Below are positions 26,290-63,736 of a stretch of 64,000 nt of DNA, one piece after another; positions within the stretch are counted from its first letter, which is position 1; the number at the start of each line of letters is the position of its first letter. A program made the translations under genes and the position numbers. This DNA is from Psammoneis japonica. Taxonomy: Eukaryota. The DNA lies in the NCBI GenBank assembly GCA_008632985.1, contig QPGO01000040.1, positions 1-64,000 on the forward strand, in the 5' to 3' direction. The notes under the pieces are model-generated. The model made no database searches, was not told the origin of the DNA, and worked only from the letters and a program-made list of their open reading frames with translations.

Positions 26290-26399
26290 AAGCTTAGAAA
26301 TATCCTAAATGTTGATGGAACGTGTATGTCTTCTCTTAAGTTCAAAACATTACATAGTCAGATTGGCTGTACTGCATTTCTTCTCTCAGCTCGTAATCT

Positions 26400-27591: not shown

Positions 27592-27954
27592 GGTGAAATG
27601 GTGTAACGAGAGTCAACGAGAACGCTAATCAATAGCGAAAGAAATGCGGTTCACGCTGTCGCGGTCGTCTTGGCGATAAAAAAAGTGGTGGCTGATGGTT
27701 GCACTGGTGGTTACGTAGCTTCTGGTATGCTATGTACGTAGCAAGAAAATTCGCGCGCTTTTTCACGAGAGCCGCACATTTTGCGCACACGTCATCCAAG
27801 TCGAGTCGGACGATTCAAAAGGTGAAATGAAGAGCAAAATCTCCCGCCGCTTTTGGTCGTTGGTCCCTGGTCCACTGACGCAACGGCATGAATCCTTCTC
27901 TTCGATAGCTTTGACACCTCACAATTTTGCGTTCTTTCCATCATCAACACCGCA

Positions 27955-28756
27955 ATGATGTCCATCCGTGCCTTTGTCGTTGCTCTCTTGGCAACCTCTG
28001 CAGTTGCTTTTGTTCCTTCGAGCAACAAGCCGCTGTTTGCTTCCAAGCACAGCAGCACTACGCTCTCCATGTCGATGGAGCGTACTTGTAAGTGATGCGA
28101 TGGTCTTCATATTGCGAAATTGATCAACGCATCTGTTATTTTAGCAATGAACTGACGAATTCGTTTGCTTTTGATTGCTTTTATTATCTTTTACATAGAT
28201 ATTATGATCAAGGTACGAAACCGAGCCGTTTGAACACAAAGATTTGCGATTGATACAGACGAATGTCGTATACAGCATCTGACGGTACATCATTGTAATT
28301 GTTTTGTATTTCTCGTTTTATAAAAAAAAACAGCCCGACGGTGTTCAGCGCGGATTGGTGGGAAACATTGTGAATCGCTTTGAAACCAAAGGATACAAGC
28401 TTGTTGCAATGAAGACGAAACTTGCCAGCAAGGAATTGTTGGAGACGCATTACAAGGATTTGGTGGAAAAGCCCTTTTTCCCCAAGCTGCGGGATTACAT
28501 GCTGAGTGGTCCCGTTGTGTGCATGGTGTGGGAAGGCAAGGAGGCCGTGTCGACGGGTCGAAAAATGTTGGGAGCGACAAATCCTCTTGAATCCAACCCC
28601 GGAACCATTCGTGGTGATTTCTGTATTGAGGTGGGACGCAACATTTGTCATGGGTCGGATTCGGTAGAAAACGCCAACAAAGAAATTGAACTGTGGTTTG
28701 ATGAATCCGAGTTGCTTGATTGGGAATCTCATTCTCATGATTGGATTTACGAGTAG
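27955..28756 (+). CDS. NDK: Nucleoside diphosphate kinase with bipartite plastid-type presequence; exons 27955-28087, 28199-28212, 28334-28756
   Basis: Spliced sequence reads [21 protein letters not shown]...[18 protein letters not shown]...PGTIRGDF...RNICHGSDS. Confidence 0.95.
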
Positions 28757-29609
28757 GAACCGAGTAAGAGAATGTGGGAAGCACCCAAGCTAGCTACTCT
28801 GTAGAGAGAATTATCATCCTGTGTTTCGGTTTATGCTAGAGTATCGCAGCTTTGTCGTCCAAAACGATCCAAATTGCATAGGCCCTCTCTAGACAACAAG
28901 ATTGGCAACACACCTTGACACCCAGGCCAATGAATCCCCTGTATCAACCCATTCAAGGCAACTCGATATGTCATAGTCGACGCTGTCTCACAGATTACAA
29001 CAATGCCACTATCAACGGCAAGCCCACTTCTTCATTCCCCAAAAGAAATAAAGGGGATTGTGCTTGAACACGTCTTTGATTCTGGTGCCGGTATGTGACT
29101 CTGTTTCAGGAAAAAAACACAGCAATGTAATTATCAAGCAGTGTTGAGCGGCTGCACAGGATCCAAGTTATACAATGAGTAAATGGTAGAAAACATGGCT
29201 CAGTGGCATACACTTGCAACATTCTTTTTTACAGCCTCTCTAGAATAGAATAATTCTGGATCCGACTATGGCTTTATCCACCAAGCTAGAGCGTGGTGCC
29301 AAACATATTCACTACTTTTAAAGTCCATAACTGTTTTATTTGTTCCTGGTACTCTACTGTAGTCAGTGATGCTGCAAGGGAGGCAATTTTCTCGTACTTG
29401 TCGTTTCTTCAGAAGACTTACGGCTACTATTCTTTCGGCAACGATGGAAGACTCAGATCGAGCCATGCCATCACAATATCTTCTGCACTGTACCTGTAGT
29501 TCATTTTGCGTAGCGACTTAGGGATCATCACAAAACTTATCCAGGTTCAGAGTCATGAGAGTCCCTGAAACTAACACGTGCAGAAGCATGATAAAACTGA
29601 ATTGGATTA

Positions 29610-29978: not shown

Positions 29979-30728
29979 GGTGAAGAACCAAGCAAAATAG
30001 ACCACTTTTGTGACCTTTTTTGGATGGACAGCTTGCCGAGTTTCATTTTTGGCATGCCAGTAGAAATTCAATGTGTTTCTACATGCGACAGTTTCTCATA
30101 CATTCGTACGAACATCACGAACTCTGCGAGCTCCAACACGAGAATAACACGAAGCACTAAGAGTTTTTGCGAGAGAGCGAATGGTGTTGCTAACACACTG
30201 TGAATGCAAAGTAAAAATGCCAAAACATTGTTGTTGCATAACATGTGGATGGTTGGTCTATCGACAGACAAAACAAATCGCCTTCAAAGCTGGTCAGAAG
30301 CTTCGACAGACTGCACAGCTCTGTTTGCATGTTGTTGCGTCGCAACAGAGGCCTGCGTCGCCCACTTTGAATCATTCTCAAATGATGACCACAGCCAGCT
30401 CCTCCACCAACATCACTGTTGTCTCCCACATCATGTTGCTGTTCAATTCAATCAATGCTCTCTGCAGCAGGAGAGCAAATGATGAGACTTCTGGCTCGTC
30501 CAACAAGATGACAACGACGCCGGCTCGACAACTCTCCAGCATTTTTGTTTCAGTCACAGATTTGTCATGTGACTGGTTGACATCCACAACCACGAATCTT
30601 TTCGAAAGCATCACTTGTTTGCACCCACAAAGCAGAGCCCTCTAAACTGCTGCTGCTGCATGGAGAGAAGGATGACAAAGCAGCCAGCCACAGCTCCTGG
30701 ATGAGCAACCAACATTTCAGAACAAGTT

Positions 30729-33700
30729 TGACAGGATTTGAACAGGATTTGGATGCGCGCGAAGCATCGCGCGCTGTTTAGTTTACCGTGCACAGTTTTG
30801 TGTGCTTTAGTTCCGCGCGTTCACGCGCGATGTAGTTTGCTTTCGAGCCACAAGGCTCACAAGAATGATGACAGTGGCCCGATCACACCGACTCACACGT
30901 CTTTTGGCTCCTGCAACGGTCTCTGAGCGGAGACTCATCTGCCATTTAGACAGCAGCAAGGAGTTGTTGTTTGAGTTCTTGCCATTTGCCTTCATTTTCT
31001 ATCAGATTGACAGTCTTGCTCATTGTCAACCCATTGAGCAACCGCCATCGTCGTCGTTGATTTACCAACGACGCCACTTCAATTCTGCGTGGACCTCCGC
31101 ACATGTTCTACATGCATCGGCAAGTCTGTGCGCATTCAATGCCAGGGCATCGGCAGGAAGTTAACGTCACCGTCAAGTCTCCTTGCCGCTGGACATCTGG
31201 ATTGATCACACCACCTTTGATCGCTGAAGACAAACATTCAACGGTCATGTCCAAGTCTGTCCTTGATCCTCATCCCTTGATGTGCCTGTTCATCGGTTGA
31301 CGGTCAAGAACCCCACATGTTCAAGGATCTTCGTCGCTGAAGACATGTGCACATGTGCATGTCTTCACGGCCAAGAACCTGCACCCACTCTTCGGACTGC
31401 GGTTTTGCTGCCACTCTACAAGCACACCGAGTCCATTGCACCTGATCTCCCCCAGACCACTGGTGCTCTGCAGTTCCACTGGGTCCACGAGGATGACTGT
31501 GAGAGCAAGCAGCCGTGACTGCAGCCTGCGTTGGGGCGAGGGTGCTTTCCCACGTTTGTTCGTTCGTCCACAGCGCCCAACGCCTGCGTCAACTGGCCAG
31601 CCTGATCGGGAAATCCAACCAACATAAAACAAGAACGGTTCGGGGGTCTTGTCCACCTCCAGTCAGCTTGCCTGCAGGGGTTTGCAACCCGCTGCTCCGC
31701 TCGTGAGCAACCCAAAGCGCCGCCAGCTGCGGGTTTGGACGTGCCGGCACAACTCTGCGGACCGGATGGGAAGTTTAGCACTTGACAACGAACGGGACAG
31801 CACAGCCCGGCGACTTCTGATTTTAAGACAGTTCAAGATTTCAAGTCAAGTCTGTTTCAAGTCAAGTCCATTCTCACCCAAGTTTCGAGTCCACCTTCTC
31901 TTCCCAACCAGAATTGATTGTCCTGACACCACTTTTGTCTGCCATGGTTCTCACTCGTCAGCAACAAACCGATGGTTTCGAGCACGTGGTTGGAACCATG
32001 CTTGCCCAAGGTGCTGGGAGTCCTCTTTGTTTGGCTTTGGCCCAAGACGGCACGGACTCGTGTCAGGAACTGTTCACGTTCATGCCATCCCAAATCGACT
32101 CACTTGAGTGCGACAACGGCACTGATGTGATCCCTTTGCCCCGTGGTTGTAAGAACATGTTAGCAGCACCAGTCAGTCTGTGCATTGTCAAAGCACACAA
32201 AGGTCTTGACGTTGCCAACGACTCCTCTTTGTTCACGCATGACGAGTTCCTTGCCTGCCGCCTCAGCCCCGACTGCATGTCTTCTGTGTCCATCGGCAGC
32301 TCACCCCTTGCACCTCCACATGTCACCAACCCGACCAAGGCACGCGACCCGGTGCGGGACTTCAAGCGAGGCATCAAGCGTGATCCCACCGCTTTCACGG
32401 CTCTCAAATCCGACAAGCAGTGGCACACTTGGCACACCTCACTTGTGGCACAAGCCCGTGCCCAAGACGTCGAGTGCACTCTAGACTCGTCGTACAAACC
32501 GACCAGCCTCGAAGACAAACTGCTCTTTGCTGAACAGCAAAAGTGCATGTTCGCCGTCTTCGAACGCATCCTTCTCACCGACAAGGGCAAGGCTCTCATT
32601 CGCGAAAATGTGGGGTCTTCTGACGCACAGACCGTCTGCCGCTCCTTGTCTGAGTGCGCGCTTGCCTCCACCCGCGCATCTGTCGAGTCCTCCACCCTGC
32701 TCACGCACCTGACCACCGCGCGTCTTGGTGATGGCACTTGGAAAGGTCCGACCCACGGGTTCATCCTTCATTGGCAAGACCAGTTGCGCAAGTGCGAGGC
32801 ACTCATCCCGGCCAGTGACCACTTCTCTGAAGGACAGAAGCGCGTCATGCTCGAGAATGCCGTGCACCCTGTCGAGGAACTCTGTGCTGTCAAGAACCAA
32901 GCTGATCAGCATCGTACGCAGAGTGGCAAGAGCCTCACACACGATCAATGCTGTGGCTTGCTCCTCTCGCGGCAGCTCAGTGTGACAGCACGTTTCAACC
33001 CAAGACGACACCTCGAGCTCCCCGACGCGCCACACACGCACATGACGTCTGCTCCGAGGAACCGTCCGACGATGTGTTCTGCGACATTGACAGCGACGTT
33101 GACGTCCTTCAGGCCAATGCTGCCCACACCCGCGGTCCCAGCCTCACCGGTGTCCAATGGAGACGTCTCCCTCCCGACCACCAACGGCTCTGGGATTCGT
33201 TGCCCGATTCCTCCAAGGCGATCATCCTTGAGCATTCTCGTCCACCTCCCCGCAACCCGCGAGCCAGTGACTGCCATGAGTCTGTTGCGGCCACCCTTCA
33301 CGACCAACGCCTTGGGAGTGACGGTGATGTCAACTTGTCCAACACGACTCCTGCTGACTGTGGTGACTCCGCTGCACATGTGGACGCCATTTCGGACAAT
33401 CCCATCCTGGCGCACCTCACCAAGCGCAAGCCACTGCCACCCGGTGATCTGCAGCGTCTGTTGTCTCCTAACCAAGCCCCCAATGCCAGTCGACCGGGGC
33501 CATCCGCCGCTTCCTCTACCCCGCCAGCTTCTGCAGATGACACAGAACTTGACGGCCGCACTTGCCGCCGCGTCAACAACCACAATGTCATTTGCTCTGC
33601 CTCTGCTCATCGCTCCACACGCACTGGCGCTCTAGTCGATCGTGGGGCCAACGGCGGCATTGCTGGCGACGACGTCCGCGTCATCGCACGCACCTCTCGC

Positions 33701-36700
33701 CAAGTCGACGTTCAGGGCATTGACGATCATCAATTGGTGGACATCCCCATTGTCACCGCTGGTGCCGTCATTGAGACCCAGTGTGGTCCCGTCATCGCCA
33801 TCCTCCATCAGTGCGCACACACGGGAAAGGGCAAGACCATCCATTCCTGCGGCCAGCTCGAATGGTGCAAACAGGATGTCAACGATCGCTCTGTCAAGGT
33901 GCCCAACGGCTTGCAACGTGTTGCCACTCCTGATGGCTGTGTCATCCCCATTGACATCAAGGCTGGCCTGCCTTGTGTTGCCATGTGACCTCACACTGAC
34001 GCCGAATGGGACACCCTGCCCCACGTCATCCTCACCGGTGATGACACATGGGACCCTTCCGTCCTCGATCACTCTGTCACTGACGATGACCAGTGGTGCG
34101 ACGCGATCTCTGACCTGCAGGACGATCCCACTGCCAACCTGTTTGACGAATGTGGCAACTGCCGTCACCGTGTCGTTGTCAACGAGACCATCTTGTCCGC
34201 TTCCTTGTCTGCCGATCACGCGTCCGCCCTCGATGATCACCTCATTCCAAATGACGATGTGTTCTGTGAGTGTCATCTGCATGCGATTGACCCCAAGGGC
34301 GATGACGTTCCACCTCCGGAGCGCACTGCACAGCCCAAGGACCCCCCCTTCGAGTCTCTTCGGCCTCACTTTGGCTTCCTGCCTGCCGATGCGGTCCGTC
34401 GTACTTTTGACTGCACCACGCAGTGCGCCCGCATGCCCGCCGGCACACACCTTCGCAAGGCCTTCAAATCACCCAACCCCGCCCTTAATGTGCACCGTCG
34501 CAACGAGCCTGTCGCCACTGACACCGTTTGTGCCGACACCCCGGCCGTCGACTCTGGTTGCACCAGCGCCCAACTGTTTGTTGGCACCGAGTCTACCGTC
34601 ACTGACGTCTGCGGCACTGAGACGGACAAAGAGTTTGTCAACACACTCGAGGATCAGATCCGTGAACGTGGTGCCCCATCCAAACTCATCAGCGACCGTG
34701 CTCAAGTTGAGATCAGCAACAAAGTGCTCGGGATCCTACGCGCCCTCTTCATCTCCAGCTGGCAAAGTGAGCCTCACCAGCAACACCAAAACTTTGCCGA
34801 GCGTCGACACCAGACTGTGAAGCGCATGGCGAACACTGTCATGGACCGCTTTGGTTTGCCCGCCCACACATGGCTGCTGGCGCTCATGTGCATGTGCTTC
34901 ATGCTCAACCATGCAGCGTCCCCACGTCTCCACTGGCGCACGCCCCTCGAGACTCTCACTGGATCCACCCCGGACATCAGCCCATTGCTTCGCTTTCACT
35001 GGTGGGAACCAGTGTGCTTCCACCTCGATGACTCCGATTGGCCGTCCGAATCTCGTGAGTTGCGTGGACGCTTCGTTGGCATTGCTGAGCACGTCGGCCA
35101 CCAGATGACCTTCAAGATTCTATCTGACGAGACTCAGAAGATCCTCTGCCGGTCCAACGTTCGCTCCGCCACCCCCGATCCTGCCGTTCGAAACCTGCGT
35201 CTTGATCCTCCTGATGGGGAGCCACCTGTGCCCATCATCAAATCTCGCCATGACGACAACCCCGTTGATTCTCCTGATGGGGAGATCAGGACACCCAAGA
35301 TGCCAGTTTTCGATCCGCAAGACATCATTGGACGCACCTTCCTCATGCAGCCACAAGAGGACGGACAACGCCACAGAGCTCGCATCGTCAAGGCCGTCGA
35401 AGACCACGAATGGAAAGTGAACGGCAATCCCGAGCTCACTAAGTTCGTCTGCTCTGTCAACAATGACGAATACGAGGAAGTCCTTGCCTGCAATGACATC
35501 ATGAATCACATTGAGCAAGAAGACGAAGACACCACCATTTGGAAATTTCGATGCATCGTGTCACACGAAGGCCCTCTGAAGCCTCACGACCCAACCTGGA
35601 AAGGCTCAAGCTACAACATCATGCTTGAATGGGAAAGTGGGGAGATCACGTCCGAGCCTCTTGCCATCATCGCCAAGGACGACCCCGTCACCTGTGCCAT
35701 CTATGCACGAGAGAACGGACTCCTCGACACGGATGGATGGAAGCGGTTCCGCACCATCGCGAGGCGCCAAAAGAAGCTATTTCGCATGGCCAACCAAGCC
35801 AAGCTTCGCTCCTTCCGCACTGCACCTCGCTGCAAGTGCGGATGCGAAGTTCCCCGGAACTGCAAACACGCCATGTCACCAGACGAACGCAACGGCAACC
35901 GCAAGTGGGGAGACGCAACTAATCTCGAGATGGACCAACTCGACGAATACGAAGTCTTCCATGACTGCGGGCCCTTCAAGTCTTCCACTCCTCCTGCGGG
36001 ACACAAGAAGATCCGAGTGCACCTGGTGCACGACGTGAAACACGACGGTCGCCACAAGGCACGACTCGTAGCCGACGGGCACCTCACGGACGTACCTGTC
36101 GACAGTGTCTGCTCCGGAGCAGTCTCCCTTCGTGGCCTTCGGCTGATGATTTTCCTGGCCGAACTCAACGAGCTGGAGACATGGGCCACCGACATTGGCA
36201 ATGCCTGCCTTGAAGCCACCACCAAGGAGAAGCTTTACATTGTAGCTGGACCCGAATTTGGCAAACTCGAAGGACACATCCTTGTCATCCACAAGGCACT
36301 GTATGGACTCCGCAGCTCCGGTCTCCACTGGCACGAGCGCTTCGCCGACTGCCTGCGAGCTGAAGGCTTCTTCCCCTGCCGCGCCGAACCCGACATTTGG
36401 ATGCGCAGGAACGGCGACCACTGTGAACACATTGCCGTTTATGTGGATGACCTCGCCATTGCCATGAAGGACCCTCAATCTTTCGTCGACACTCTCACGG
36501 AAAAGCACAAGTTCAAGCTCAAGGGTGCGGGACCCATTGAGTTCCATCTGGGTTGCGACTTTTCCCGGGACCCCGACGGAACCTTGTGCCTGTCTCCGCG
36601 CAAGTACATCGAGCGCATGGTCGACAGCTGCGCCCGACTGTTTGGGGAGAAACCTGCCACCAACGCCCTGTCACCTCTAGAGAAGGGTGACCACCCCGAA

Positions 36701-37835
36701 CTGGACACTTCCGAACTGCTGGGACCCGATGGCATTCACAAGTTCCAGTCTCTTGTTGGTTCACTCCAATGGGCAGTGTCCCTTGGTCGAATTGACATCA
36801 CCACGGCCGTCATGTCACTCTCTAGCTTCCGAGCTGCGCCCCGTCAAGGCCACTTGGATCGTGCCAAACGCGTCTGTGGGCACCTCTCCAAGATGCGACA
36901 CGGTGCTCTCCGCGTTCGCACGGAAGAGCCCGACCATTCGGATCTCCCTGCTCCTGCCTGCGAATGGATGCATTCCGTGTATGGTGAAGCAGAAGAGATG
37001 ATCCCGAAGGACGCTCCACCGCCCCTTGGCAAGTTCGTCACTGCCACCCACTGCGTCGATGCAAACTTGCACCATTGCATGCTCACTGGACGCTCTGTCA
37101 TGGGAATGCTCCACTTCCTCAACAAATTCCCGGCTGATTGGTTCTCCAAGAAACAAGCCACCATAGAGACTGCAACCTGCGGATCTGAATTTGTTGCCGC
37201 AAGGAATTGTGTTGAGCAGATTGTCGACCTGCGCATCACCCTGCGCTGCCTTGGCGTCCCGATCCGTGGTGTCAGTTACATGTTCGGTGACAACAAGTCG
37301 GTTGTAGACAGTGCCACCATCCCGCACTCCAAGTTACACAAGCGACACACCGCACCATCGTTCCACCGTGTGCGTGAGGCAATTGCCTCTGGTTGCCTTG
37401 AGTTCCACTTCATCGAAGGATCCCGCAACCCTGCTGACATTCTCAGCAAGCATTGGGGTCACTCCCAAATCTGGGACCTTCTCCGACCCCTCATGTTCTG
37501 GAACTTCATTCCATCCGAAGTCGAATCTGTTTCTGTGGCTCCTCAAGCAAACTGGGGAGTGACAGGATTTGAACAGGATTTGGATGCGCGCGAAGCATCG
37601 CGCGCTGTTTAGTTTGCCGTGCACAGTTTTGTGTGCTTTAGTTCCGCGCGTTCACGCGCGATGCAGTTTGCTTTCGAGCCACAAGGCTCACAAGAACAAT
37701 GACAGTGGCCCGATTGCACCGACTCACACGTCTTTCGGCTCCTGTGACGGTCTCTGAGCGGAGACTCATCTGCTGTTTAGACAGCAGCAAGGAGTTGTTG
37801 TTTGAATTCTTGCCATTTGCCTTCAATTTCTGTCA
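30729..37835 (+). mobile_element. Ty1/copia (CoDi-like) LTR retrotransposon, copy C; full length (7107 bp), defective
   Basis: LTRs at 30729-31004 and 37560-37835; TSD AAGTT at 30724-30728 and 37836-37840; PBS and PPT present; colinear with copy A. Confidence 0.97.
31944..37612 (+). pseudogene. gag-pol polyprotein of copy C, with a frameshift near 32965 and a CGA->TGA stop at 33986
   Basis: Same PR, IN, RT and RH motifs as copy A in ORFs 31914..33635, 32948..33988 and 34193..37612. Confidence 0.93.
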
Positions 37836-38050
37836 AAGTTTTCCTTGGGATCGGGCTAAATTCACTGTCATGCCACCAATTTAAGCTCTTCTGAGTCATC
37901 CACACTGGTTGCATTTGCCAGAGTTCTGCCAAAGTAACTTCCAATGGGGCCAACGCGTCATTTGCGGTTCTTGCATCCACGGACACATTCAGGGCAAGTC
38001 CTCCTTGGCCTCTCCAGCTGACTCCGCCATCATGCCAACACATTGAGAGC

Positions 38051-38395
38051 TGCTGAGTCTTCCACACTGCATGCTGACGTCATAACACCACCAAAGACAC
38101 TTCAAATAGGGTCAACAAATCGTCGCAATGTCAACACCGACCATTGTGCATCATGTTGGTGGGTCCAACGGCGTCTTTTTGTCGCGAAACAAAACCCCTG
38201 TAACTCGGTCACCACCGGCCATTGCTGAGTCTTCCACACTGAACACTGACGTCATAACACCGCCAAGGACACTTCAAATAGGATCAATGCATCGTCGCAA
38301 CATCAACACCGACCATTGTGCGTCATGTTGATGGGTCCAACGGCATCCTTTCATGGCGAAACAAAACCCCTGTAACCCGGTCATGACCGGCCAAT
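38051..38395 (+). repeat. Tandem duplication, 2 x 172 bp, at the edge of a TpA-depleted block
   Basis: tgctgagtcttccacactg...aaacaaaacccctgtaac.cggtca..accggcca starts at 38051 and 38223. Confidence 0.88.
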
Positions 38396-49730: not shown

Positions 49731-49829
49731 CGTTGGCTGTTGCTCGAAGTGGTTTTTAGCAAAGATTCAGATGATGCGACGTCGCGTTACGAGTTGTTGC
49801 GAAATCCAAAATTCCAACAAATGGGGATG

Positions 49830-52180
49830 ACGTCACGGAAATCTGATTTGGGCACACGGGATCGCCATCTCCCGCTCGCTCTCCCCAAGCCCAGCCACCA
49901 CCAGCAGGGACGTTCTGCGACCTTTCCACTCTTCCGCTGCTGAAGGCACTTCCGTGCCTCCTTCTGCTGTTCACTTCCGTTCTCAACAGGCTCTCTAACT
50001 GTGTGCTTGGTTCAATCTTTGCCTGAAGCCAGTCCACCTCTCACAACCAGCGCCACAGCCGACCACGCATCGAAGTGCCGTGCTGGCCCTCGAGATTTCC
50101 TTCCAGCTTCAACACAAGTGACAACTTGTCCCAACATGGATTGAAAAAGCAACTGGGCAGCATTTTCTTGGTGAAATTGACGTGTGCTCATGACACTTCT
50201 TCAGCGTGCTGTGTGCTGCTGGCGCCTCTGCTTTTGGCTTGTTCTTGGAGAGCTGCCATCCTCACATTGCTGCCGAGTGAGGGGCTTGTTGATTCTTGAT
50301 TCCTGTGTGGCACAATGTCTGTTTCATGTGGGTTGCAGCATGTGCGCCATGTTTCATGGAAGGAGAATGCCAGCTGCACCCTTGTGTCAAGAGATTGCCC
50401 AGTGAGTCAGGTCGCTTCCAGGACCTTCAGTTGGCAACAGATCAGAAATCCCAGTCAATGCCTGTGTCATTCACCAGCGCATGGAGCAACCTTTGTAGCT
50501 CCCACCCCATCTGCCACACAAAGCACAAACAATGAGCAAACAATGGCATTCAACCACTGCATGAGAGACCTGCTCAGTGTGCATTCCAGAGGTTCAGCCA
50601 AACAAGTGGTCTGTCACATGGCCCACTCTCGTGGCTGGCATCCTTGATCTTGACTTGTTCCAGACTCATGTGCATGAATGTGCAGTCCAAACTTAAGGTG
50701 CAATTTTCAATGGCCAAAAAACACAATGATCTTCAAATGCATTGTCATGGGCACATGCAGAAAGGTCTCGTGCATGCACTCATGTGTGAGAAACTGAGGA
50801 TGGACCAAGTTGTTGATCGCCAAATTGTGCCTTAAGATGAGAGCTCTTTTTTCCGATGAGTGATTTGCAACTGCTTTTGTGTGTTGACAAACAACACATT
50901 GATTGTTGTTCTTGTGCACCAATGTGCTCTCAAATGCGACATGAATGATGTTTCGTCCACTCATTTGAGTGCAAGTTGATCTCAATGGATTGAACAAAAC
51001 ATGCATTGATTGACAAGTTTCGGAAGACGCGGAAAGAAATGAAGCTCAGCATGTGCAATGGCATCAACTTCAGACCCTTTTTCACTGTTCCATTGGCATG
51101 AACAACTGACACACTTGCACAAGTCCATGTTGTGGAGGAAATGTGCATGAAAATGGAAAAGAAATGTGCTTTCTTGGAGGCAAATTGTGAGTGAATTGAG
51201 GCTCAATTGTTGGTGCTGACAGATTGAATCTTCTTGTGCCATGCTGCAGCCTGCATCAAGCATTTTCATTGTTGTGATGGATGCCACAGACCATGTGAAA
51301 TGCTGTGGTCTTCATCATGACATTCAATTTTCCATGAGGTTGAAAAAAGCGGGCTGTCATGGTTGCTGAAAGCCATGGCCGTTTTGGCTGTTTGTTGGCT
51401 CGAATTTGCTCTGTTTGTTTCACTTAAAATCCATTGATGTGATCATTTAAATAAAATGTCAATGATGTTGAACAAAGCATGAAACATTCATTTTTTGTGC
51501 AAAATCAGGCATGAGCATGCCACCTGAGTCTGGAGCAAGTCTTTTGCCAAAGTGCTGGTGCTGGTCTCCTCGCTCACCCACGATTTTTGACCTCGCACGC
51601 TGCATCCCTCACAAGCAGATGTTTTTACTGCAGTGTTCATTGGCATCACACTCCAGCATGTGCTGACCTTCCCATGCACAGTGGAGAAGGAGCGGTGCAG
51701 TGCCTGTGGACAGGCGGCATCAACAGCGCGGTGTCAATCTTGTTTCTTGTGCTTTCTGCTGCGCAGCTGTGGTGCTGGGCTTGCTCCCCCTCCCCCTGCC
51801 TCTCTCCACTGACAAATCATGTGCTTCAAGAGATGAAGTCCATTTTTTCTTTTTTTTCAGCTCTCAGACTGTTGTTCTGCCTTCCCTCTCCCTGCTGCCT
51901 CTTTCTTTTGAGAGCACTCTGCCGCAAAGGAGCTTTGCACGCATGCATGCAAGCACAGCCAGGTGACCTGTGTGTTTCCACTTGGACAAGAATGTTTGTT
52001 TTTTCATTCACAAGGTGCTGTGTGATGGCCATTCTGGTCCCCGGGTGTGAGCCATCATCCATTCGCTTGGCCAAGAGCGAGAACAGGAAACTTGAGTGAC
52101 ACCTGGAACGATTTGGCACGGTGACTCATTCATGTCTGCCCTAATTGTGAATGACGTGAAGGACATCATGACTCACTTAA
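49830..52180. mobile_element. Unclassified degenerate TpA-depleted repeat, probable transposon relic
   Basis: Sharp compositional block between two normal genes; no intact ORF. Confidence 0.5.
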
Positions 52181-54436: not shown

Positions 54437-54993
54437 ATAGAAAGTGATGGATTATGGGTATGTAAATAGTATATATAAACAATAGAATTGCTACGGTTTG
54501 CTCATTCATTCGTCGATGGCCACGTATTTGTCCGTCCTGTTGATGTTGCGTATGCTGAATGTGCTCTATCCTCTCTACGAGTAGAAGTAGAGGTGAGAGG
54601 CAAATAATGTATGTAGACTCTACCGTAGAGTTGATGGTGGTGGCGTTTCCTTTTAGGTCTCTTGCATGGGTGTTAAATAATCCTGAACAATTATGGAGAA
54701 ATTTTCTTTTACTGTTAAGTAAACAGATTCTCGTTTTTCCGTAAATATTGAGAGATAAATGTCGTCAACGCGAACCCCCATGCGTGTTCGGGGTCCGAAT
54801 TTCCCACAAAACAATAAAGGGACGAAAGCATCGCATCACGCCTCCCACAGTATTCTTCTCGACAAATAATTGAAGCTCTCGAAAAGACGGCACATCTGGT
54901 AAGAAGCACGACGTGAGCGGTTTCTCTCTTTCTGTGACTTGCCGCTTCTAACGACTTGGTTTGGCCTGTTCGTGGCTACAGTACCCGATTGTA

Positions 54994-56754
54994 ATGAAAC
55001 GCAGAACTCTAGAATGCACGGCGTTGGGAACCTGCCTACTTTTTGCTTTTATCTGTGAAGGTGCAAACGCAAAAGAAGATGTAGGAGTAATCGAAGAACC
55101 TGATGGTATCGATGGTTTCGCTACTAACCACGCAAAAAGCTTTGACTTTGGAACAACCAATAGCATTGCTGACGACACGATGGAAACCACGATGAAAGAT
55201 ATCGCCCTAGCGAGGGACCTTGTTGATGAATCACTGCCCTCCTGGACAGAGAAATATATGGCTGTTGACATTGGAGAATGGATTCAAATGGGACGGAGTA
55301 TTACCATTGATCCCAAAAAAAGGTTCGAAATGGTGGCAATGTCTAGAGATGGAAATCGTATGGTCATTTCAGAGAGTGGCAGATATGGAAAATTTGGGCG
55401 GATCCGTGCATATCAGTGGAACTCTTTCAAGTCGGACTGGAAGCTAATGGGTCAAATCATCGAGGGAGTATACCACAGTCCTCTAGTCGCCATGTCAGCC
55501 GATGGAAAATTTATTGTTACTGCTGAGGGACAAGAAGCAGTGCGTGTCTTCAAGTGGCAACGTCAAATGTGGAAACAGGTCGGAGAAAGCATTCCAATGT
55601 GGGTGGGTACAAGCTACAATAGAGGATACTTTCAGTCAGTGGCAATATCGGATAATGGGCAAACTATTGCAGCTTCAATGTTGAACTATCGCATTAGAGT
55701 CCCTGGACAGGTCAAAGTATTTGACTGGGGAGGATCAAAGTGGAAAGAGAAGGGACACTTGTCCGGAAGCCTAAACAGCCTAGGGACATATGATTCATTC
55801 GGGGACAGTATCGCAATGTCAGGAGATGGGAATCAATTGGCAATAGGTATTCCCTTTGCTGTAAAATCTGGAAAACGTGTAGGAAAGGCACAAGTCTTGA
55901 AGAGGAGGGAGGGATCATCTTCTTGGGTTCAAAAAGGACAAGACATTTACGGCAAAGGAAAGGACTACGGCTTTGGTAGGTCCATTGCGATATCTCAAAA
56001 TGGAAGCCGCGTAATTATTGGTGAAAAGAGACATCGAGAAAGTGGATACGCACGTGTTGTTGAGTGGAACGAATCCAAAAAGCTTTGGAACATGGTAGGA
56101 AGCGATATCGAAGCGGAGTACAATGACGATTTCGGGGAATCAGTTTCAATATCGAGTGATGGAGGGCGAGTAGTTGCGGGCGCCAGAGACTTTGATGAAA
56201 TGGTTGGCCCCTCAGGAGCCGGGTTTGCTCGGATGTTTCACTTTGATGGAACCTCATGGCTACAGCTGGGAAATGGATTGTATGGGAGGAAAAAATATAG
56301 TGGATTTGGCGCAGGCGGGGTGTCAATGGCAGGCAGTGGAAATCGTGTGGCAATCTTTTCGGGAAATGCCATTAGTGTTTACAATTTCGTTCCACTCGCC
56401 AATGACGCTCTTGTTGTAGAAATCAACATCAAGCCATTCAAGAAGAACCATGACATCAAAATCAGCAGAGCTCGTAAAGAAGAAACTGTAGGCGTTGCCG
56501 TACTTACAACCGACGACTTTGACGCCAAAAAGGTAGACGTACAATCCATTCGATTCGGTCCTGATATGGCACAGCCTGTCAGTTGGCTAAAGAAGGATGT
56601 CAATTTCGACGGTATCAAGGACATTATTCTCGTGTTCAAACTCCACCATACCGGGTTTAGTCCAGGGCGCCAGCAAGCATGCTTGCATGGAGAGCACACA
56701 TCTGGAGTGGAATTCAAGGGTTGTCGAATCGTTCGCGTCACCAAGGCAAAGTAG
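54994..56754 (+). CDS. Secreted beta-propeller (FG-GAP-like repeat) protein with a bacterial-type C-terminal domain, copy 1
   Basis: Signal peptide; repeated W.Q.G..I.G....FG.S.A.S.DG..(V/L)A.G blades; C-terminal INIKP...VAVLTTDDFDA...DVNFDGIKDIILVF; intronless. Confidence 0.85.
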   Translation: MKRRTLECTALGTCLLFAFICEGANAKEDVGVIEEPDGIDGFATNHAKSFDFGTTNSIADDTMETTMKDIALARDLVDESLPSWTEKYMAVDIGEWIQMGRSITIDPKKRFEMVAMSRDGNRMVISESGRYGKFGRIRAYQWNSFKSDWKLMGQIIEGVYHSPLVAMSADGKFIVTAEGQEAVRVFKWQRQMWKQVGESIPMWVGTSYNRGYFQSVAISDNGQTIAASMLNYRIRVPGQVKVFDWGGSKWKEKGHLSGSLNSLGTYDSFGDSIAMSGDGNQLAIGIPFAVKSGKRVGKAQVLKRREGSSSWVQKGQDIYGKGKDYGFGRSIAISQNGSRVIIGEKRHRESGYARVVEWNESKKLWNMVGSDIEAEYNDDFGESVSISSDGGRVVAGARDFDEMVGPSGAGFARMFHFDGTSWLQLGNGLYGRKKYSGFGAGGVSMAGSGNRVAIFSGNAISVYNFVPLANDALVVEINIKPFKKNHDIKISRARKEETVGVAVLTTDDFDAKKVDVQSIRFGPDMAQPVSWLKKDVNFDGIKDIILVFKLHHTGFSPGRQQACLHGEHTSGVEFKGCRIVRVTKAK

Positions 56755-57205
56755 TGAGATATTTCGGATACACAAATACCAGGAAACCTTTTAATATATA
56801 GACAGTACTTACCATTTTTAGGTTGTCGCTGACGAATGCGATGTTGTGCTTCTATATCTTTGAATGTGCCGTGAGCAAGAGTCGAGTTCTTGACTCATTG
56901 TTAGAACTCGTCTCGTTGTGATGTGGAGAGAATAAGTTTACCGCTTTGCGTAACACGTAAACCACACAGAAAGGTGGAACGTAAACGTTTAGAAGCTCTT
57001 CACACACCACAAGATAAAAATAGCGCCGGATTTCATACGGGAGGTCCACGCAAGCATTTTAGTCTTTTGGATGCAACCCAGCATCGCCCAAGTATGGGGA
57101 TCCAAATGCACCCACACGTGCCATGTGTGGATTCTCTTGCATTGCATTTACTTCATTCTCCAACTTGGCAAGCTCCTTGTTGTCGGGGAAAATTTCTTGG
57201 GCTCG

Positions 57206-60200
57206 AAAGCAACGATGGTGAAGGGTCCGCTTTAAAGAAGTTCAGGGCAGTGACATCATCAGCCGGTGCATCGTCGCGGAGGAAACGCCAAGACGAAGCA
57301 ACAGTCACTCCTTTTAACATCAAACCACAAAAAGTCAAAGCCCGAACTGGTTTTAAAGACATTGTTCAGCTGCTGTGTCATGTTCTCACGGTTTGCGATG
57401 GAGACGTGGGAAGCATGACACAACAAACTGGTCCTTTGACGTGGTTTGAGGAATGGTTCCTGTTCTGTGAGTTCATCTGGGGAAGGACTGCGGCAACAAT
57501 GGAAGCAGCAGGTGCCATTTTTGAACTCAGCAAGATGTCAAAAATGATTGATGGAAAGCTTGCATCTGTTCTCAAGAACGGCAGAACTGGCCGACTTGTG
57601 CTGCACATGAGGAAGACTTGAAAATGCATGGTGAGAAATGGAATGACAAGCATGGCAAAGATGAGCAACCAGTGCTTTGGGACGACACTGGCAATGATCT
57701 GCACACGCCATCGGATTCACTCCTGCAGCGAGTGACTTGTTCTGCATGCTGTGGAGGCAACATTGCGAAGGGAGGTGTTTTTGCACAACTTTGTGGTTGG
57801 TTGGGGACCAAGGAGCTACATCCAGGTGCCATGTCTGATTCTGAATGCTTTCAAATGGCTGGTGTTCTTGAAAAACAGAAAAAGTTTCAAGAAGAGGATG
57901 GCAGAATCAAATTCCTTGATGTGGTGTGGCGACAAGACCAATTTGTGTCACAACCTGAGTTTGCACAGAGTGATCAGAAATTCTCTGCTCGGGAAGTGTT
58001 GCACTCTGCAAGCATTGCAGCTGATTGCTCTGGAAATGAACGAGCAGTCCGTGTTTCTAAATTGTCAGCATGTGTCAAGCGCAGAATGCAAACACACAAG
58101 AATCTTGACCATTTGTGCAAGGCATGGCTTGCCTGGAGTTGGCAAGCAAATTTTGTGTTTAAACTGGTTCATCAAAAAGTTGGTTTATTCAGTTTGTTTC
58201 TTGGCAAATCACAAAGCGTGTCCGAAATCAAAATGACAATTCTCTGCATGAAGCACCTCATGAGGATGAGGAGTCAATGGCTCCTGCTCTGCTGCAGGGC
58301 CTGTTGACACAGTGCACCACAGTGCTTGTGATGGAGGCACAGGAAAAAGATTTCATTTGCAGTGCACTTGATGTGTGCCCCAAAATGTTGCAAGCACAGG
58401 TGTCCATTCCAGTCAGAGGGCAGGGACTCAAGTTCAGCAGTGACTCCCACAGAGGGATGTCATGCAACAGATCAGGCTCCAGTTGTCAGCAAGAAATTGA
58501 CAAGTTCAATGTTGAAGAAGGTGGTCAATGAAAGTGTTTGGCCACATTGCAAGTTCACAATCTTCGACAGAGAACTGGCGGTGAGAAGAGAGCACATGAA
58601 AAGAAGACTTCTGCAGGAGTCAAGAAGTGCAGCAGCTGCACCGGAGGCACTCTGGGAAGCATGCAAAGAGGTGTTCAGGAAAAAACTCAACCACAAAAGG
58701 AGCAATGTGCAGGATGATGGAAGGAGGAGGATGACAGGCAAGCCAAAATGTGGACGCATTCAAAAGTCATGGACAGGAATGTCTGACAACAAGAGTGTGA
58801 TTTCCATTGTTTTCATCAATGCAGCTGCTGCTTTAGAGGGGTCACTGGTTGAGTGCAAAGATTTGGTCCAGGACAGAGTGGACAAAAGCACACACACATG
58901 GTTCTTGGAAACTGCAGCGCCAACTGTGTCAGGCCAAGTGCAGTTTGGCAGAAGCATGACCAACTTGCTCCAAGAGTGGCTTGCCATTTCTTTGGAGGCC
59001 TTTGCTCTGCTGGTGTGCTTGAGCTGCCATGACAAGGTGGTCAACACATCAGAGAAATTGGGAAAGGACAACAACATTGCAAGGCAAAGAAAGCTGTGGT
59101 GGTGGAAGACACTGCACCAGCAAAGTGTGCTGCAATGGCAAAGGGAGAAATGGCTGAAAGGAGCCAAGGATGGAGCAAGGATGAGATCAAGAAGTGCAAT
59201 GAACTGCACAAGTGGGTGATGAAAAACCAGGAGGAGAACAAAGGATTCAGTGCATGGCTCAAGGAACAGAGACAAGAGAAGGCAAACTTGCCCAAGGAGG
59301 CAGAGAAGAGCTGCAAAAGGGAGGAGAAGAGGAAGGAGAGAGAGAGGACAGATGGGCAGCATTGATGGGAGAGGACCTGCCATTGCTGGCAGCCACTGGC
59401 TGCAATGGAGTGGAAGCAATTGCAGAAGTGGCAACCAACCAAACTGGTGTGTGAGCTCAATTTGTGGCAAGCAACAAAATCCAGAAAACAGAAAAAACAA
59501 AAAGGCAAGCTGTGGCACAATTGACAGTCGAGAAATGTGGCCATTGCAAAGCTGTTGCACATTTAAAGCAGCAGCGCAAATGCATGAAATGCCAAAGGAT
59601 GATGCAGGCAAGGATGGTGGATCTCAAGTGGCAAAACAGGTGATGAAGAAACAATGAGCAGCAAATGTCAACAAGGGTTGAGAGCAAAATTGTGGGCAAA
59701 CATGTTCGCACTGCAAAGTGGAGTGAAATTCAGGTTTTAGAAGCTCACGAACTCAATCAGTCACATGTTTTTTTTTGTGCACTCGCCTTCTGATTTTTGA
59801 AACAATCAAATTTGAAGGAATTCAATGTGCCAAACTGTGCAGAAAACCAGTCTCACACATGATGGATTGCTCATCACTGGGGCTGGAACATGCGGGAGAC
59901 GGGTTTCAGCCCCAGGTGGGACTCCGTGTGACATTTGCCCCGCAGAATTCTGTGTGCAAGCTCTGCAGTTCATGCTCTGGCCAATGGACACATTTGTCTT
60001 CGACATGAAATGAACGACCAAGTTTGTGGCACACATGTCCCTGTTCCTGCTTGAAGTTTTGGACAGCCCGCCTGCCCCGCGCCATGCTCAAGACATTTGA
60101 GAATGGTGCAGAAGAAAAAAATGTCAAAAGTTGTTGAATGGATCGCCCAATGATTGTGCCGCAAAACAGCGCAAAATGTCACCAAAATCACATGGAAATG

Positions 60201-60656
60201 TGCGTGCGCAACATGCGATGCGATTCAAAAAACTGTCGATGTCACAGTTCAGCAGCACGAGGTCCCACCTGGACCTGGAACATGTCAGGAGGGTTGTGGC
60301 CACAGTGCATGAAGAGCACTCTGCTGACTTGCTCGCAGCGGGCCACACATTGTGGTTGGTTGTGGCAGTGTCAAGAGATGTGACAACCGTGCTGCAAGGA
60401 CAAAACAAGTGCTGCCTGGAGCCCTTGCCCTTGTCTGGAGAGATGATGGCCGATGTTGTGTTTTGACATCATTGTGTGTGGATGACAATGAAGCTTGAGA
60501 TGGCTTGGAAACAGATCAGGAGACAAGGTTTTTTTTATGATGGTGACAACAATGCCCAGCGCGATGATGACACCAAAGACACCGATCTGAAATCACGAGC
60601 TTTTTTTTTAGCAGAATGTGAGCTAAAAAAGTGGGGGATGACCCCCCCCCCCTTAA
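57206..60656 (+). mobile_element. DNA transposon relic with a DDE_Tnp_4-type (PIF/Harbinger-ISL2EU-like) transposase at ~57206-58190 plus further degenerate ORFs
   Basis: PLTWFEEWFLFCEFIWG; WDDT...LQRVTCSACCGGNIAKGGV (ancestrally likely TYS.YY); GAMSDSEC; QPEF...KFS..E...IAAD.SGNERAV. Confidence 0.7.
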
Positions 60657-61063
60657 GCGTCTGATGCGATGTTGGCGTTAAATAATGCAGCATCTTAGTG
60701 AACAATTAAGAGGAAACTTTCTTTGGTGTTAAGTAGACAGATCCTTGCTTTCTCCCATAAATGTTGAGAAATAATTATTAGACCATGTCGTCAACGCGAA
60801 CCCCGAGAATTCTGACATGCGAATCATCTCCCACAAAACCAAAAAAAAGGAAAAACATCGCGTCAACAGAGCAGCACTACACAACCTCGTCAACTGGAAA
60901 TCACAGCGCCATAAAATATTCGTCTCTATACAAATCGAAACTCTCGAAAAGACGGCAAATCTGGTAAGAAGCAGGACGTGAGCGGTTGTCTCTTTCTGTG
61001 GCTTGCCGCTTCTAACGACTTGGTTGGACCTTTTCGTCAATGTGGCTACAGCACCAGATAATA

Positions 61064-62818
61064 ATGACACGCAGTACTCTAGAGTACACGGCGTTAGGAG
61101 CCTTGATACTTTTTGCTTTTATCGGTGTAGGTGTAAACGCAAAAGAAAATGTAGGAGTGGCTGAAGATCCTGTCGTGAGAAATAGTTTCGACAGTTTCGC
61201 TACTAGCCACGCAAAAAGGTTTGACATTGGAACGACCACCAGAATTTCTGACGACACAGTGGACTCCACGAGAAGAAATCTCGGGGACTCTGTTGATGAA
61301 TCACTGCCTTCCTCGACAGAGAAATCTACTGCTGTCGACATTGGAGAATGGATTCAAATGGGACGGAGTATTACTACCACACATCCCAAAAAATGGTTCG
61401 GAATGATGGCAATGTCTAGAGATGGCAATCGTATGGCCATTTCAGAGAGTGTCAAAAATGCAAAAATTGGGCGAATCCGTGCATATCAGTGGAACTCTTT
61501 CAAGTCGGACTGGAAGCTAATGGGTCAAATCATAGAGGGAGAATATAAAAGCCGTCGACCCATGCCTCTACCGGCAGTGGCAATGTCAGCTAATGGAAAA
61601 TATCTTGTTACTGCCGAGGGACTAGAAGTAGTGCGTGTCTTCAAGTGGCAAAGTCAAATGTGGAAACAGGTCGGAGAAAGCATTCCAAGTTGGGTGAGCA
61701 ACCATAGAGATTTCTTCCGGTCAGTAGCAATATCAGATGATGGACAAACTATTGTGGCTTTAATTTCTTTCGACGCCGCTAGAAACCCTGGACAAGTCAA
61801 ATTGTTTGACTGGAGTGGATCCGAATGGAAAGAAAGGGGATCCTTGTTGGAGAGTTTAGACAGCCGCGAGGACATTGGTTTCAGCATCGCAATGTCAGGA
61901 GATGGGAATCAATTGGCAATAGGTATTCCCTTAGCTGTAAAATCTGGAAGAAATGTAGGCAAGGCACAAGTCTTCAAGAGGAGGAAGGGATCATCTTCTT
62001 GGGTTCAGAAAGGACAAGACATTTATGGCAAAGGGAAGGACTACGGCTTTGGTTTATCAATAGCGATATCTCAAAATGGAAGCCGCGTAGTTATTGGTGA
62101 TCTGAGTGGGTACGCACGTGTTGTCGAGTGGAACGAGTCCACGAATCATTGGAACATGGTAGGAAATGGTATCGAAGCGGAGTACAAAGATGAATTCGGA
62201 GGATCTGTTTCTATATCGAGTGATGGAGGGCGAGTGGTTGCGGGCGCCAGTGACTTTTATGGAGTGGTTGGCCCCTCAGGAGCCGGGTTTGCTCGGATGT
62301 TTCACTTTGATGGAACCTCCTGGCTACAGCTGGGAAATGGATTGTACGGGAGGGAAAAATATAGTGGATTTGGCGCAGGCGGGGTGTCAATGGCAGGGAG
62401 TGGAAACCGCGTGGCGATCTTTTCGGGAAATGCCATTAGTGTTTACAATTTTGTTCCACTCGCCAATGACGCTCTTGCTGTAGAAATCAACATCAAGCCA
62501 TTTAAGAAGAACCATGACATCAAAATCAGCAGAGCTCGAAAAGAAGAAACAGTAGGCATTGCCGTACTCACAACCGACAACTTTGACGCCAAAAAAGTAG
62601 ACGTACAATCCATTCGATTCGGCCCTGATATGGCACAGCCTGTCAGTTGGCTAAAGAAGGATGTCAATTTCGACGGTATCAAGGACATTATTCTTGTATT
62701 CAAACTCCATCATACCGGGTTTAGTCCAGGGCGCCAGCAAGCATGCTTGCATGGAGAGCACACATCTGGAGTGCAATTCAGAGGTTGTCGAATCGTTCGC
62801 GTCACCAAGGCAAAGTAG
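61064..62818 (+). CDS. Secreted beta-propeller protein, copy 2 (tandem paralogue of 54994-56754)
   Basis: Highly similar along its length; C-terminal third nearly identical; flanking sequence is also duplicated. Confidence 0.85.
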   Translation: MTRSTLEYTALGALILFAFIGVGVNAKENVGVAEDPVVRNSFDSFATSHAKRFDIGTTTRISDDTVDSTRRNLGDSVDESLPSSTEKSTAVDIGEWIQMGRSITTTHPKKWFGMMAMSRDGNRMAISESVKNAKIGRIRAYQWNSFKSDWKLMGQIIEGEYKSRRPMPLPAVAMSANGKYLVTAEGLEVVRVFKWQSQMWKQVGESIPSWVSNHRDFFRSVAISDDGQTIVALISFDAARNPGQVKLFDWSGSEWKERGSLLESLDSREDIGFSIAMSGDGNQLAIGIPLAVKSGRNVGKAQVFKRRKGSSSWVQKGQDIYGKGKDYGFGLSIAISQNGSRVVIGDLSGYARVVEWNESTNHWNMVGNGIEAEYKDEFGGSVSISSDGGRVVAGASDFYGVVGPSGAGFARMFHFDGTSWLQLGNGLYGREKYSGFGAGGVSMAGSGNRVAIFSGNAISVYNFVPLANDALAVEINIKPFKKNHDIKISRARKEETVGIAVLTTDNFDAKKVDVQSIRFGPDMAQPVSWLKKDVNFDGIKDIILVFKLHHTGFSPGRQQACLHGEHTSGVQFRGCRIVRVTKAK

Positions 62819-63089
62819 TGAGACATTTCGGAAACGAGAATACCAGGAAAACTTTTAATATTATATACAGTACTTACCATTTAGACATGCACCGAGCAGC
62901 AAAGAAAGTTGTCGCTGACGAATGCGATGTTGTGAAAGAGGCGAGTTCTTGACTCTTCGACAGAACTCGTCTCGGTGTGATATGGAGAGAATATACCGCT
63001 TTTCGTAAAACGTTTCAGAAGCTCTTCAAAACTCCTCGAGGTTAAACTTGGGTCGTAGGATTTGATACGTGAGGTCCAAGCAAGCATTT

Positions 63090-63736
63090 TTAGTCTTTTG
63101 GATGCAACCCGGCATCGCCCAAGTATGGGGATCCAAATGCACCCACACGTGCCATGTGAGGATTCTCTTGCATTGCATTCACTTCATTCTCCAACTTGGC
63201 AAGCTCCTTGTTATCGGGGAAAATTTCTTGGGCTCGTTCAAAGGCAGCCCGAGCTGCTTGGCAATCTTCAGCTTGGTACAAGAGCAATGTAATGAGACTG
63301 AGATGCGATGGTAGGTAGGATTCGTCACGATATATGGATACCTCCAACATTCGTGATGCCTTTTCAACACTAGGCACATCACTATCTCCCTGCTTTAAGC
63401 AACCCAAAGCCTCGCTGAGATTGCAAAATTGATTGATTCAATGAAAGAAAGAGTGAGCATGGGATTAAAAAGTACGAGAAAAAAAAGCAAACACAAGTAC
63501 AAACACGAAAATTCGACTTACTCGTGAAGCTGCTCTGCTGATTTTGGATACACAATGTAATAGATTCGTCTACAAAACTCATACAGCACTGTTAGAAACA
63601 GCAAGACCACCACACCCGGCAACAATACCGTTGTGGTGAGTTCCCAAAGAAATTCAGGCAAGTGAGAGATTGCAATTTCCAACTCGGCGGAAAGGTTGCG
63701 CAGTGCGTACACTAGCATTTTCGTTCGACCGCCCAT
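63090..63736 (-). CDS. Membrane protein with TPR-like helices (intron at approx. 63521-63418); a truncated 3' duplicate lies at ~57058-57205
   Basis: TM segment TVLLPGVVVLLFLTVLY; ASRMLEVSI...YLPSHLSL...AARAAFERAQEIFPDNKEL. Confidence 0.55.

Follow-up and report, generated by a model that had tools for sequence, protein, structure and literature searches.

Repeats in a stretch of Psammoneis japonica DNA have lost most of their TpA dinucleotides, and the loss is probably the outcome of a localised hypermutation that acted on DNA after integration, turning TpA into TpG or CpA, with deamination of adenine as the favoured chemistry. The stretch (called the window below) comprises 64,000 nucleotides of assembly GCA_008632985.1, contig QPGO01000040.1, positions 1–64,000, forward strand. 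The affected sequences are Ty1/copia retrotransposons, a probable remnant of a PIF/Harbinger DNA transposon and further TA-poor blocks without a family match. In the proposed process, either base pair of the TpA step would change from A:T to G:C, near saturation and ending at the edge of the repeat. The adenine would be deaminated enzymatically to hypoxanthine, which is read as G, and the agent would be a TadA/ADAT-like enzyme drawn to repeat chromatin in a silenced, CpG-methylated state. The process would be of the same kind as that seen as new mutations in Bigelowiella natans, and the repeats of the window are a new instance, in another lineage and in ordinary transposons, of this very recently described kind of hypermutation.

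Blocks were delimited by the gaps between TA sites. Those that carry the census are listed here (Y, pyrimidine; R, purine; o/e, observed/expected ratio).
Positions 5128–16622, 17390–24018, 30260–38082, 49789–52141 and 57206–60656, no strand: five repeat blocks, poor in TA and rich in TG/CA.
Positions 57206–60656, no strand: probable PIF/Harbinger-type DNA transposon remnant, depleted in TA and CpG and rich in TG/CA, set exactly between tandem host paralogues; its left edge is the end of paralogue homology at 57205.
Positions 49789–52141, no strand: TA- and CpG-depleted block with 8 TA in 2353 bases, 5 of them YTAR (TA o/e 0.04–0.06; CG o/e 0.31–0.33).

The transposon remnant (3451 bases) contains 14 TA by full count, where 231 are expected from base composition and about 139 at the background o/e of 0.6. 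The survivors are TTAA (6), TTAG (3) and CTAA (2), making 11 YTAR, and CTAC (1) and TTAT (2), making 3 YTAY; RTA is absent. These numbers are exactly those that the first-pass annotation, a reading of the bare sequence, had counted by hand, and the same bias that it claimed at 49830–52180 recurs in the block 49789–52141. In the window outside the TA-poor blocks, 213 of 1306 TA are YTAR, and against this share at least 11 of 14 has P = 4.9e-7. Across the remnant, 1-kb windows show a TA o/e of 0.03–0.15, a TG/CA o/e of 1.5–2.0 and a CG o/e of 0.17–0.56; the ordinary DNA of the window shows a TA o/e of 0.47–0.76 at the same scale. TA per 500 bases falls from 26 outside to 3 inside at the left edge, and rises from 4 inside to 29 outside at the right. 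At most block edges the counts are 19–34 outside and 0–3 inside, with softer right edges in two blocks.

Pooled, the five blocks (31,751 bases; TA o/e 0.02–0.2, TG/CA o/e 1.5–2.0) retain 179 TA, namely 76 YTAR, 42 YTAY, 35 RTAR and 26 RTAY, and the background (32,249 bases) holds 1306, namely 213, 322, 348 and 423 of the same contexts. A table of NTAN contexts in transposons and genes had been proposed as a check; counted in the blocks and the background, survival is far from uniform (YTAR; YTAY plus RTAR, 77 vs 670; RTAY; chi-square P = 8e-17). ATAT occurs 0 times in the blocks and 122 times in the background; for TTAA the numbers are 23 and 47.

A deficit of this kind might have been present from the start, a product of biased composition or of selection against TA, and nothing need have happened after insertion; the background DNA is itself moderately TA-poor (o/e 0.5–0.7). 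The copies of one retrotransposon family bear directly on this.
Positions 10267–17376, minus strand: Ty1/copia copy A, with long terminal repeats (LTRs) at 10267–10543 and 17101–17377 and an RVT_2 match (E = 6.7e-26).
Positions 30729–37835, plus strand: Ty1/copia copy B, with LTRs at 30729–31004 and 37560–37835 and an RVT_2 match (E = 6.5e-27).
Positions 17896–19284, plus strand: partial Ty1/copia copy C, consisting of an LTR and about 1.1 kb more, and facing copy A head to head.
Positions 16623–17895, no strand: TA-normal patch that takes in the leader and 5' LTR of copy A and a unique spacer of 520 bases, and serves as a nearly unmutated internal reference.

Self-BLAST puts the identity of copies A and B at 96.7% over 7.1 kb, with LTRs of 277 bases; copy C shares 90.5% with B and 85% with A. 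Alignment of the two full copies reveals 230 differing positions, 221 with a transition and 9 with a transversion, and nearly all are interchanges among TA, CG, CA and TG. Grouped, the differences make 168 events, of which 98 are single changes of TA to TG/CA or of CG to TG/CA, and 44 have CA in one copy and TG in the other. These last sites mark an ancestral TA mutated independently in each copy, because CG stands intact in both copies at 474 sites and the discordant pairs are thus not CpG-derived. Substitutions of other kinds number only about 16 over the 7.1 kb, though most ancestral TA have changed in each copy. An element integrates with two identical LTRs; those of copy A now differ by 12 transitions and no transversion, all in the TA/CG/CA/TG classes, and those of copy B by 13 transitions and 1 transversion, at sites of the same classes.

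The first 750 bases of copy A in coding orientation (16623–17377) keep 42 TA, against 10 in copy B, and the rest of copy A is depleted; the 500 bases to the right of 16622 alone contain 34 TA. In a three-way alignment, copies B and C show differing mixtures of TG and CA at the TA sites that the patch has kept, which is the mark of independent mutation. Editing therefore seems to act in patches or domains; alternatives for the sparing of this region are recombination with an unmutated copy or a chimeric assembly.

The encoded proteins carry the same imprint. From 120 homologues of the copia polyprotein (56–67% identity), the 60 full-length ones were aligned. At the columns with Tyr in at least 80% of them, the 84 cells of copies A and B hold Cys 44 times, His 16, Tyr 15, Phe 6, Trp 2 and Leu 1, and other conserved residues are mostly retained (for example, Ile 56 of 68 and Asn 42 of 46). 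Tyr makes up 0.2–0.8% and Cys 3.2–3.7% of the copia open reading frames (ORFs) of the window; no Tyr-poor protein was found among the 120 listed homologues, all of which have Tyr at 2.9–5.0% and Cys at 0.7–1.5%. Elements born TA-poor would be hard to reconcile with the differences within LTR pairs, the CA-versus-TG discordance between copies, the mutation of B and C where copy A has kept a TA-rich patch, the replacement of conserved Tyr by Cys or His in catalytic domains, and the normal Tyr and Cys content of all 120 homologues; such an origin appears extremely improbable.

Two host genes on either side of the transposon remnant serve for comparison.
Positions 54684–57205, plus strand: host FG-GAP-repeat protein gene, tandem paralogue 1, with a 600-aa ORF at 54952–56754; TA is normal, and the gene is used as a control.
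Positions 60699–63236, plus strand: host FG-GAP-repeat protein gene, tandem paralogue 2, with a 600-aa ORF at 61016–62818; TA o/e 0.60–0.65.

These paralogues are 83.5% identical and differ in an ordinary spectrum of 138 transitions and 121 transversions; 200 of the differences fall outside the TA/CG/CA/TG classes. Taken together, the evidence from copies, LTRs, Tyr codons, the spared patch and the flanking genes points to a one-way change of TA to TG or CA, on DNA, after integration, on both strands and in repeats only.

No strand bias is seen in the symmetric contexts, where RTAY has become TG 30 times and CA 25 times, and YTAR 6 and 4 times (in total, TG 36 and CA 29). A 5' T is essential. 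A/G differences between copies were found at 54 of 1245 positions after T (4.3%), a figure that excludes about 100 further positions in CA-versus-TG pairs, against 4 of 1504 after A (0.27%) and 6 of 1943 after G (0.31%); the 2.4% found after C belongs to a different process, change of the CpG type. Polymerase eta is prone to A to G errors at WA, and error-prone repair synthesis by this enzyme in heterochromatin had been put forward as a candidate mechanism. AA to AG is not raised, however, the value after 5' A being like that after 5' G, and the proposal is hardly credible for these repeats.

The contexts of surviving TA had been read as pointing to a target motif of 5'-TAY-3'. Survivors alone are ambiguous in this respect, as YTAR is not only the one context that offers neither adenine a pyrimidine at +1, but also the only one without a purine at −2 for both adenines, and the polarity of the products is needed to separate the two. 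Sites were therefore polarised in two ways, by copies that retain TA and by Tyr conserved in homologues, with identical products in two copies counted once. A polarity-only logistic model was set aside since the +1 and −2 effects are inseparable in its R/Y coding, and was replaced by a competing-risk model that uses TA retention.

In the asymmetric contexts (YTAY and RTAR), the A before a pyrimidine was the mutated one 41 times against 14 (P = 3.6e-4); YTAY gave TG 37 times and CA 10 times, and RTAR gave CA 4 times and TG 4 times. A baseline-free measure, the fraction mutated where the other copy keeps TA, rises from 0.19 for YTAR through 0.37 for the mixed contexts to 0.52 for RTAY (P = 0.02). 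The competing-risk fit (213 observations) sets the ratio of pyrimidine to purine at +1 at 3.66 (likelihood-ratio P = 2e-9), with rates by +1 base of 1 for A, 0.67 for G, 2.83 for C and 3.6 for T; the purine/pyrimidine ratio at −2 is 1.4 and not significant (P = 0.12). With four levels at −2, A reaches 3.1 relative to T (3 degrees of freedom, P = 0.0016), and the +1 ratio becomes 3.32. Seven LTR copies agree with this order. TA persists in 18 of 21 cells at their three TTAG sites, in line with the first-pass remark that tttag usually survives in the LTRs, and in 2 of 14 at TTAT. Among the LTR products, CTAT gave TG 6 and CA 0, TTAC gave TG 3 and CA 0, GTAA gave CA 6 and TG 0, and GTAG gave CA 7 and TG 2.

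Judging from these alignments, a TpA core is required and the flanks set the rate: a pyrimidine at +1 raises it about 3–4-fold over a purine, and A at −2 about 3-fold. ATAY appears to be lost first, and TTAA, TTAG, CTAA and CTAG to last longest. The suggestion that the edited A lies preferentially in T-A-Y is thus upheld as a preference (fitted at 3.3–3.7); as a strict motif it fails, YTAR evidently being lost too, only more slowly. The compared copies thus show which way the change runs, that it is symmetric between the strands, that it followed integration, that it keeps to repeats and that it prefers certain flanking bases.

The flanking preference also bears on the agent. ADAR-like editing of transposon RNA, fixed by reverse transcription, would profit from the preference of ADARs for a 5' U (motif 5'UAG) and from the double-stranded RNA that the inverted copies A and B could form. 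Yet the symmetric contexts are mutated equally on both strands, the two LTRs of one element differ at TA sites, a DNA transposon remnant and blocks of single-copy depth are affected too, and G at +1 is the least favoured base (0.67 relative to A), the opposite of 5'UAG; an RNA route of this type seems most improbable. ADAR hyper-editing does share with the present case the A to G change, the 5' U preference and the aim at repeats, but its substrate is RNA, and here both DNA strands are changed after integration.

TadA, ADAT2-3 and the TadA-derived base editors convert A to inosine, which is read as G, and the favoured 3' pyrimidine and required 5' T fit such enzymes. The base that precedes A34 in tRNA is U33. 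A review table gives the TadA/ADAT2 motif as 5'ACG (A34 followed by C in the bacterial substrate) and the ADAR motif as 5'UAG. The footprint is closer to TadA than to ADAR because G is least favoured at +1 and pyrimidines are most favoured, and a TadA/ADAT-like adenine deaminase would be a plausible agent. The other route that had been suggested, deamination subsequent to 6mA, gains no support from the window.

Several points weigh against this account. The flanking estimates come from about 100 ancestral sites of one element family, so that the fold values are rough, and the P values are too small, since each TA/TA pair entered the count twice, once per direction, and copies B and C may have a common origin. 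RTAR alone is balanced in coding orientation (4 vs 4), and its support comes from the LTR set, whose copies are non-independent. A composition-only test of product polarity (RCAR plus YTGY against RTGR plus YCAY) was uninformative (odds ratio 1.05, P = 0.35), and so were the tetranucleotide excesses, which are dominated by the higher GC of the repeats; such composition-only tests were given up, background DNA being ill suited as a baseline for products. TadA and ADAT enzymes act on tRNA, and their activity on DNA is engineered or reported only for amphioxus ADAT2, the enzyme cited as a precedent for DNA editing; this sole ADAT2 reported to edit DNA adenine prefers 5'GAA rather than T-A-Y, and no known enzyme therefore matches. 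Furthermore, the A of T-A-Y and the T of R-T-A belong to the same base pair, and sequence cannot separate adenine from thymine chemistry.

The thymine of 5'-R-T-A-3' might accordingly be the modified base, for example through TET/JBP-type oxidation to 5-hydroxymethyl- or 5-formyl-uracil, which mispairs with G and yields T to C. The sequence data are equally compatible with this, and 5-hydroxymethyluracil in dinoflagellate DNA prefers TpA. The analysis offers no direct support for such a route, and adenine deamination is what the B. natans study, in its main text, proposes without demonstrating it; thymine-directed chemistry is regarded as unlikely.

A modified base at TpA in repeats could also have been misread as G or C, since modified motifs can give systematic base-calling errors on some platforms. 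Contigs from a public sequencing run match TA-poor single-copy stretches with 0–1 differences over 908, 1521 and 2470 bases, although this run, which confirms the sequence, may be the assembly's own data and this too counts against the preferred account. An artefact would not yield random choices of CA or TG at the same site across copies, nor would it spare YTAR, and it is considered very improbable. Hypermutation of integrated DNA, with adenine as the favoured target, remains the preferred explanation.

Ordinary CpG decay, of the 5-methylcytosine type, appears from the copy comparisons to act in the same blocks, so that CG and TA both drain into TG/CA. The CG o/e is 0.17–0.56 in the older blocks, with a gain of TG/CA; copies A and B differ as CG versus TG/CA at 51 sites; and at some sites copy A alone has TG or CA where other contigs of the copia family have CG (from 40 listed of 346 variable places, a sample too small for statistics on context). 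This decay suggests that the targets are methylated, silenced chromatin. Four of the same 40 listed places (11141, 14077, 16901 and 18285) show CG in copy A and CA in nearly all other family contigs, which could reflect either subfamily structure or A to G change at CpA at a low rate.

In the sequencing run, contigs of the copia family add up to a depth of about 50,000–110,000, against about 60 for unique DNA, and 17,883 contig pieces match it at 80% likeness or more. The family is extremely abundant although both full local copies have most of their conserved Tyr codons destroyed.

The identity of the DNA transposon was assigned through its relatives.
Positions 57208–58172, plus strand: decayed DDE_Tnp_4 (PIF/Harbinger) transposase remnant without the N-terminal part, in two frames with a switch near 57555–57576.

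A phmmer search with this remnant found 488 relatives (top E = 4e-45). DDE_Tnp_4 scores above the Pfam cut-off in 7 of the 8 relatives scanned, and tblastn places the transposase matches at 57208–58172; the block 57206–60656 is therefore probably a PIF/Harbinger-type remnant. The remnant's own Pfam match (E = 1.4e-3) lies under the cut-off, and no convincing terminal inverted repeats were found for the element among 34 pairs. At 7 columns with a Tyr majority, the remnant has Cys 4 times, His, Phe and Gly once each, and Tyr never; the translation of 57555–58172 contains 0% Tyr and 5.3% Cys. The element may have inserted at the junction of the two FG-GAP-repeat paralogues, or may have helped cause their duplication; both are possible.

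Thirty ORFs of at least 80 aa overlap positions 56500–61200, and long ORFs occur in all six frames, because loss of TAA and TAG leaves TGA as the sole stop. Gene callers would probably predict orphan genes in the TA-poor blocks.

Other parts of the depleted sequence were assigned as follows.
Positions 5128–10266, no strand: TA-depleted block (TA o/e 0.02–0.17), part at single-copy depth and part (about 7001–8334) a high-copy repeat.
Positions 19285–24018, no strand: TA-depleted block with a tandem duplication (19904–20863 and 20865–21823) and solo LTRs at 21994–22270 and 22499–22775.
Positions 1–430, minus strand: TA-free fragment, with no TA before 430; positions 9–359 match 58783–58406 at 71.6% identity, so that it is related to the 57206–60656 element.

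Contig depth in the first of these is 61–124 over 5000–7000 and 8335–9668, and about 25,000–29,000 over 7001–8334. TA depletion is strong (o/e 0.02–0.05 in places) at 5128–7000 and 8335–9668 despite the single-copy depth. Judging by such stretches, the process may not require present-day repetition, and the viral insert of B. natans is likewise single-copy. The halves of the tandem pair at 19904–21823 (about 960 bases each, 98% identical) are separated by 16 transitions and no transversion; a weaker internal periodicity of about 170–210 bases is also seen inside this duplication. A Pfam scan of the ORFs in the remaining TA-poor blocks, including 5128–10266 and 49789–52141, gave no credible family match. 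An IBR_1 match at 7921–8490 was rejected as probably an artefact of Cys enrichment.

Literature searches, which covered few subscription journals, found the TpA signature described only in a 2026 preprint on B. natans (Mettrop et al., bioRxiv 10.64898/2026.01.13.699255). A SPLASH paper in which 'diatom' and 'hypermutation' both occur proved unrelated. According to its main text, 231 of 302 new mutations in mutation-accumulation lines fell in integrated giant-virus and virophage regions, at a rate about 1000 times background; those in the viral regions were, with few exceptions, changes of A to G or T to C, and all GC-biased ones lay on TpA. TpA-poor clusters rich in CpA and TpG were enriched there for DDE endonuclease and reverse transcriptase Pfam families (10.64898/2026.01.13.699255). 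Both cases show almost only A:T to G:C change, at TpA, giving TpG and CpA on the two strands, and in both it is confined to foreign or mobile DNA, with the remaining genome normal.

The two cases also differ in several respects. B. natans is a chlorarachniophyte, and the organism-named relatives of a large ABC-like host ORF in the window are all diatoms. Its targets, as the preprint's main text describes them, are a single-copy giant-virus insert and a virophage insert in which TpA still makes up 3.3% and 9.2% of dinucleotides, whereas the transposons here are near saturation; new mutations were observed there, and here the process is deduced from comparison of copies. CpG decay in the same blocks is a further difference. 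The T-A-Y and ATAY preference is not described in that main text, which contains no flanking-base analysis (none of the words 'trinucleotide', 'flanking' or 'context' occurs in it). A metagenome scan for hypermutated relatives of the window's elements returned one locus (L001; 49% identity, TA o/e 0.6) and was uninformative.

As to the host genes, the closest organism-named relative of a helicase exon is a Thalassiosira protein at 51% identity. A transcript-like contig skips about 24281–24371, 24491–24559 and 24812–24893 (69–91 bases), with GT..AG ends after a shift of 1–2 bases (23962–24999); the run of this contig thus probably contains transcripts, and the plus-strand host gene probably has short introns. 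Together with the long ORFs of the window and the diatom relatives, such introns make B. natans an improbable source of this DNA.

Repeat-induced point mutation (RIP) of ascomycete fungi is the functional analogue: a genome defence with one class of transition in a dinucleotide context, acting on both strands with sharp repeat limits and destroying coding capacity. RIP changes C:G to T:A, mostly at CpA, so that TpA is created, as the account in PMC2621366 has it. The direction here is the opposite, TpA being destroyed (o/e 0.02–0.2) and CpA/TpG made. A dependence on duplication is not evident here, blocks of single-copy depth being affected.

Hypermutation of ordinary transposons, one of them at roughly thousand-fold depth, in a second lineage points to a more general eukaryotic defence rather than a single-species oddity. 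The flanking fingerprint (T-A-pyrimidine favoured about 3–4-fold, A at −2 about 3-fold, and G the least favoured base at +1) lets candidate enzymes be scored, and it already argues against ADAR-like and polymerase-eta mechanisms. Because the stops TAA and TAG disappear and Tyr codons come to specify Cys or His, the process produces long false ORFs and spurious matches to Cys-rich domains; it also masks repeats from similarity searches and raises their GC. A natural enzyme of this kind, if it exists, would be of interest to base-editing research.

It may tentatively be proposed, as a possibility still on the doubtful side, that diatoms and chlorarachniophytes share a natural DNA adenine deaminase for genome defence, recruited to silenced mobile DNA, with an ATAY-over-YTAR footprint, a reverse of RIP that is maybe widespread in marine protists. 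If true, this would provide the first case of a natural A-to-G editor of DNA whose motif is defined, and it would explain the stop-poor, Cys/His-rich, orphan-gene look of many protist repeats.

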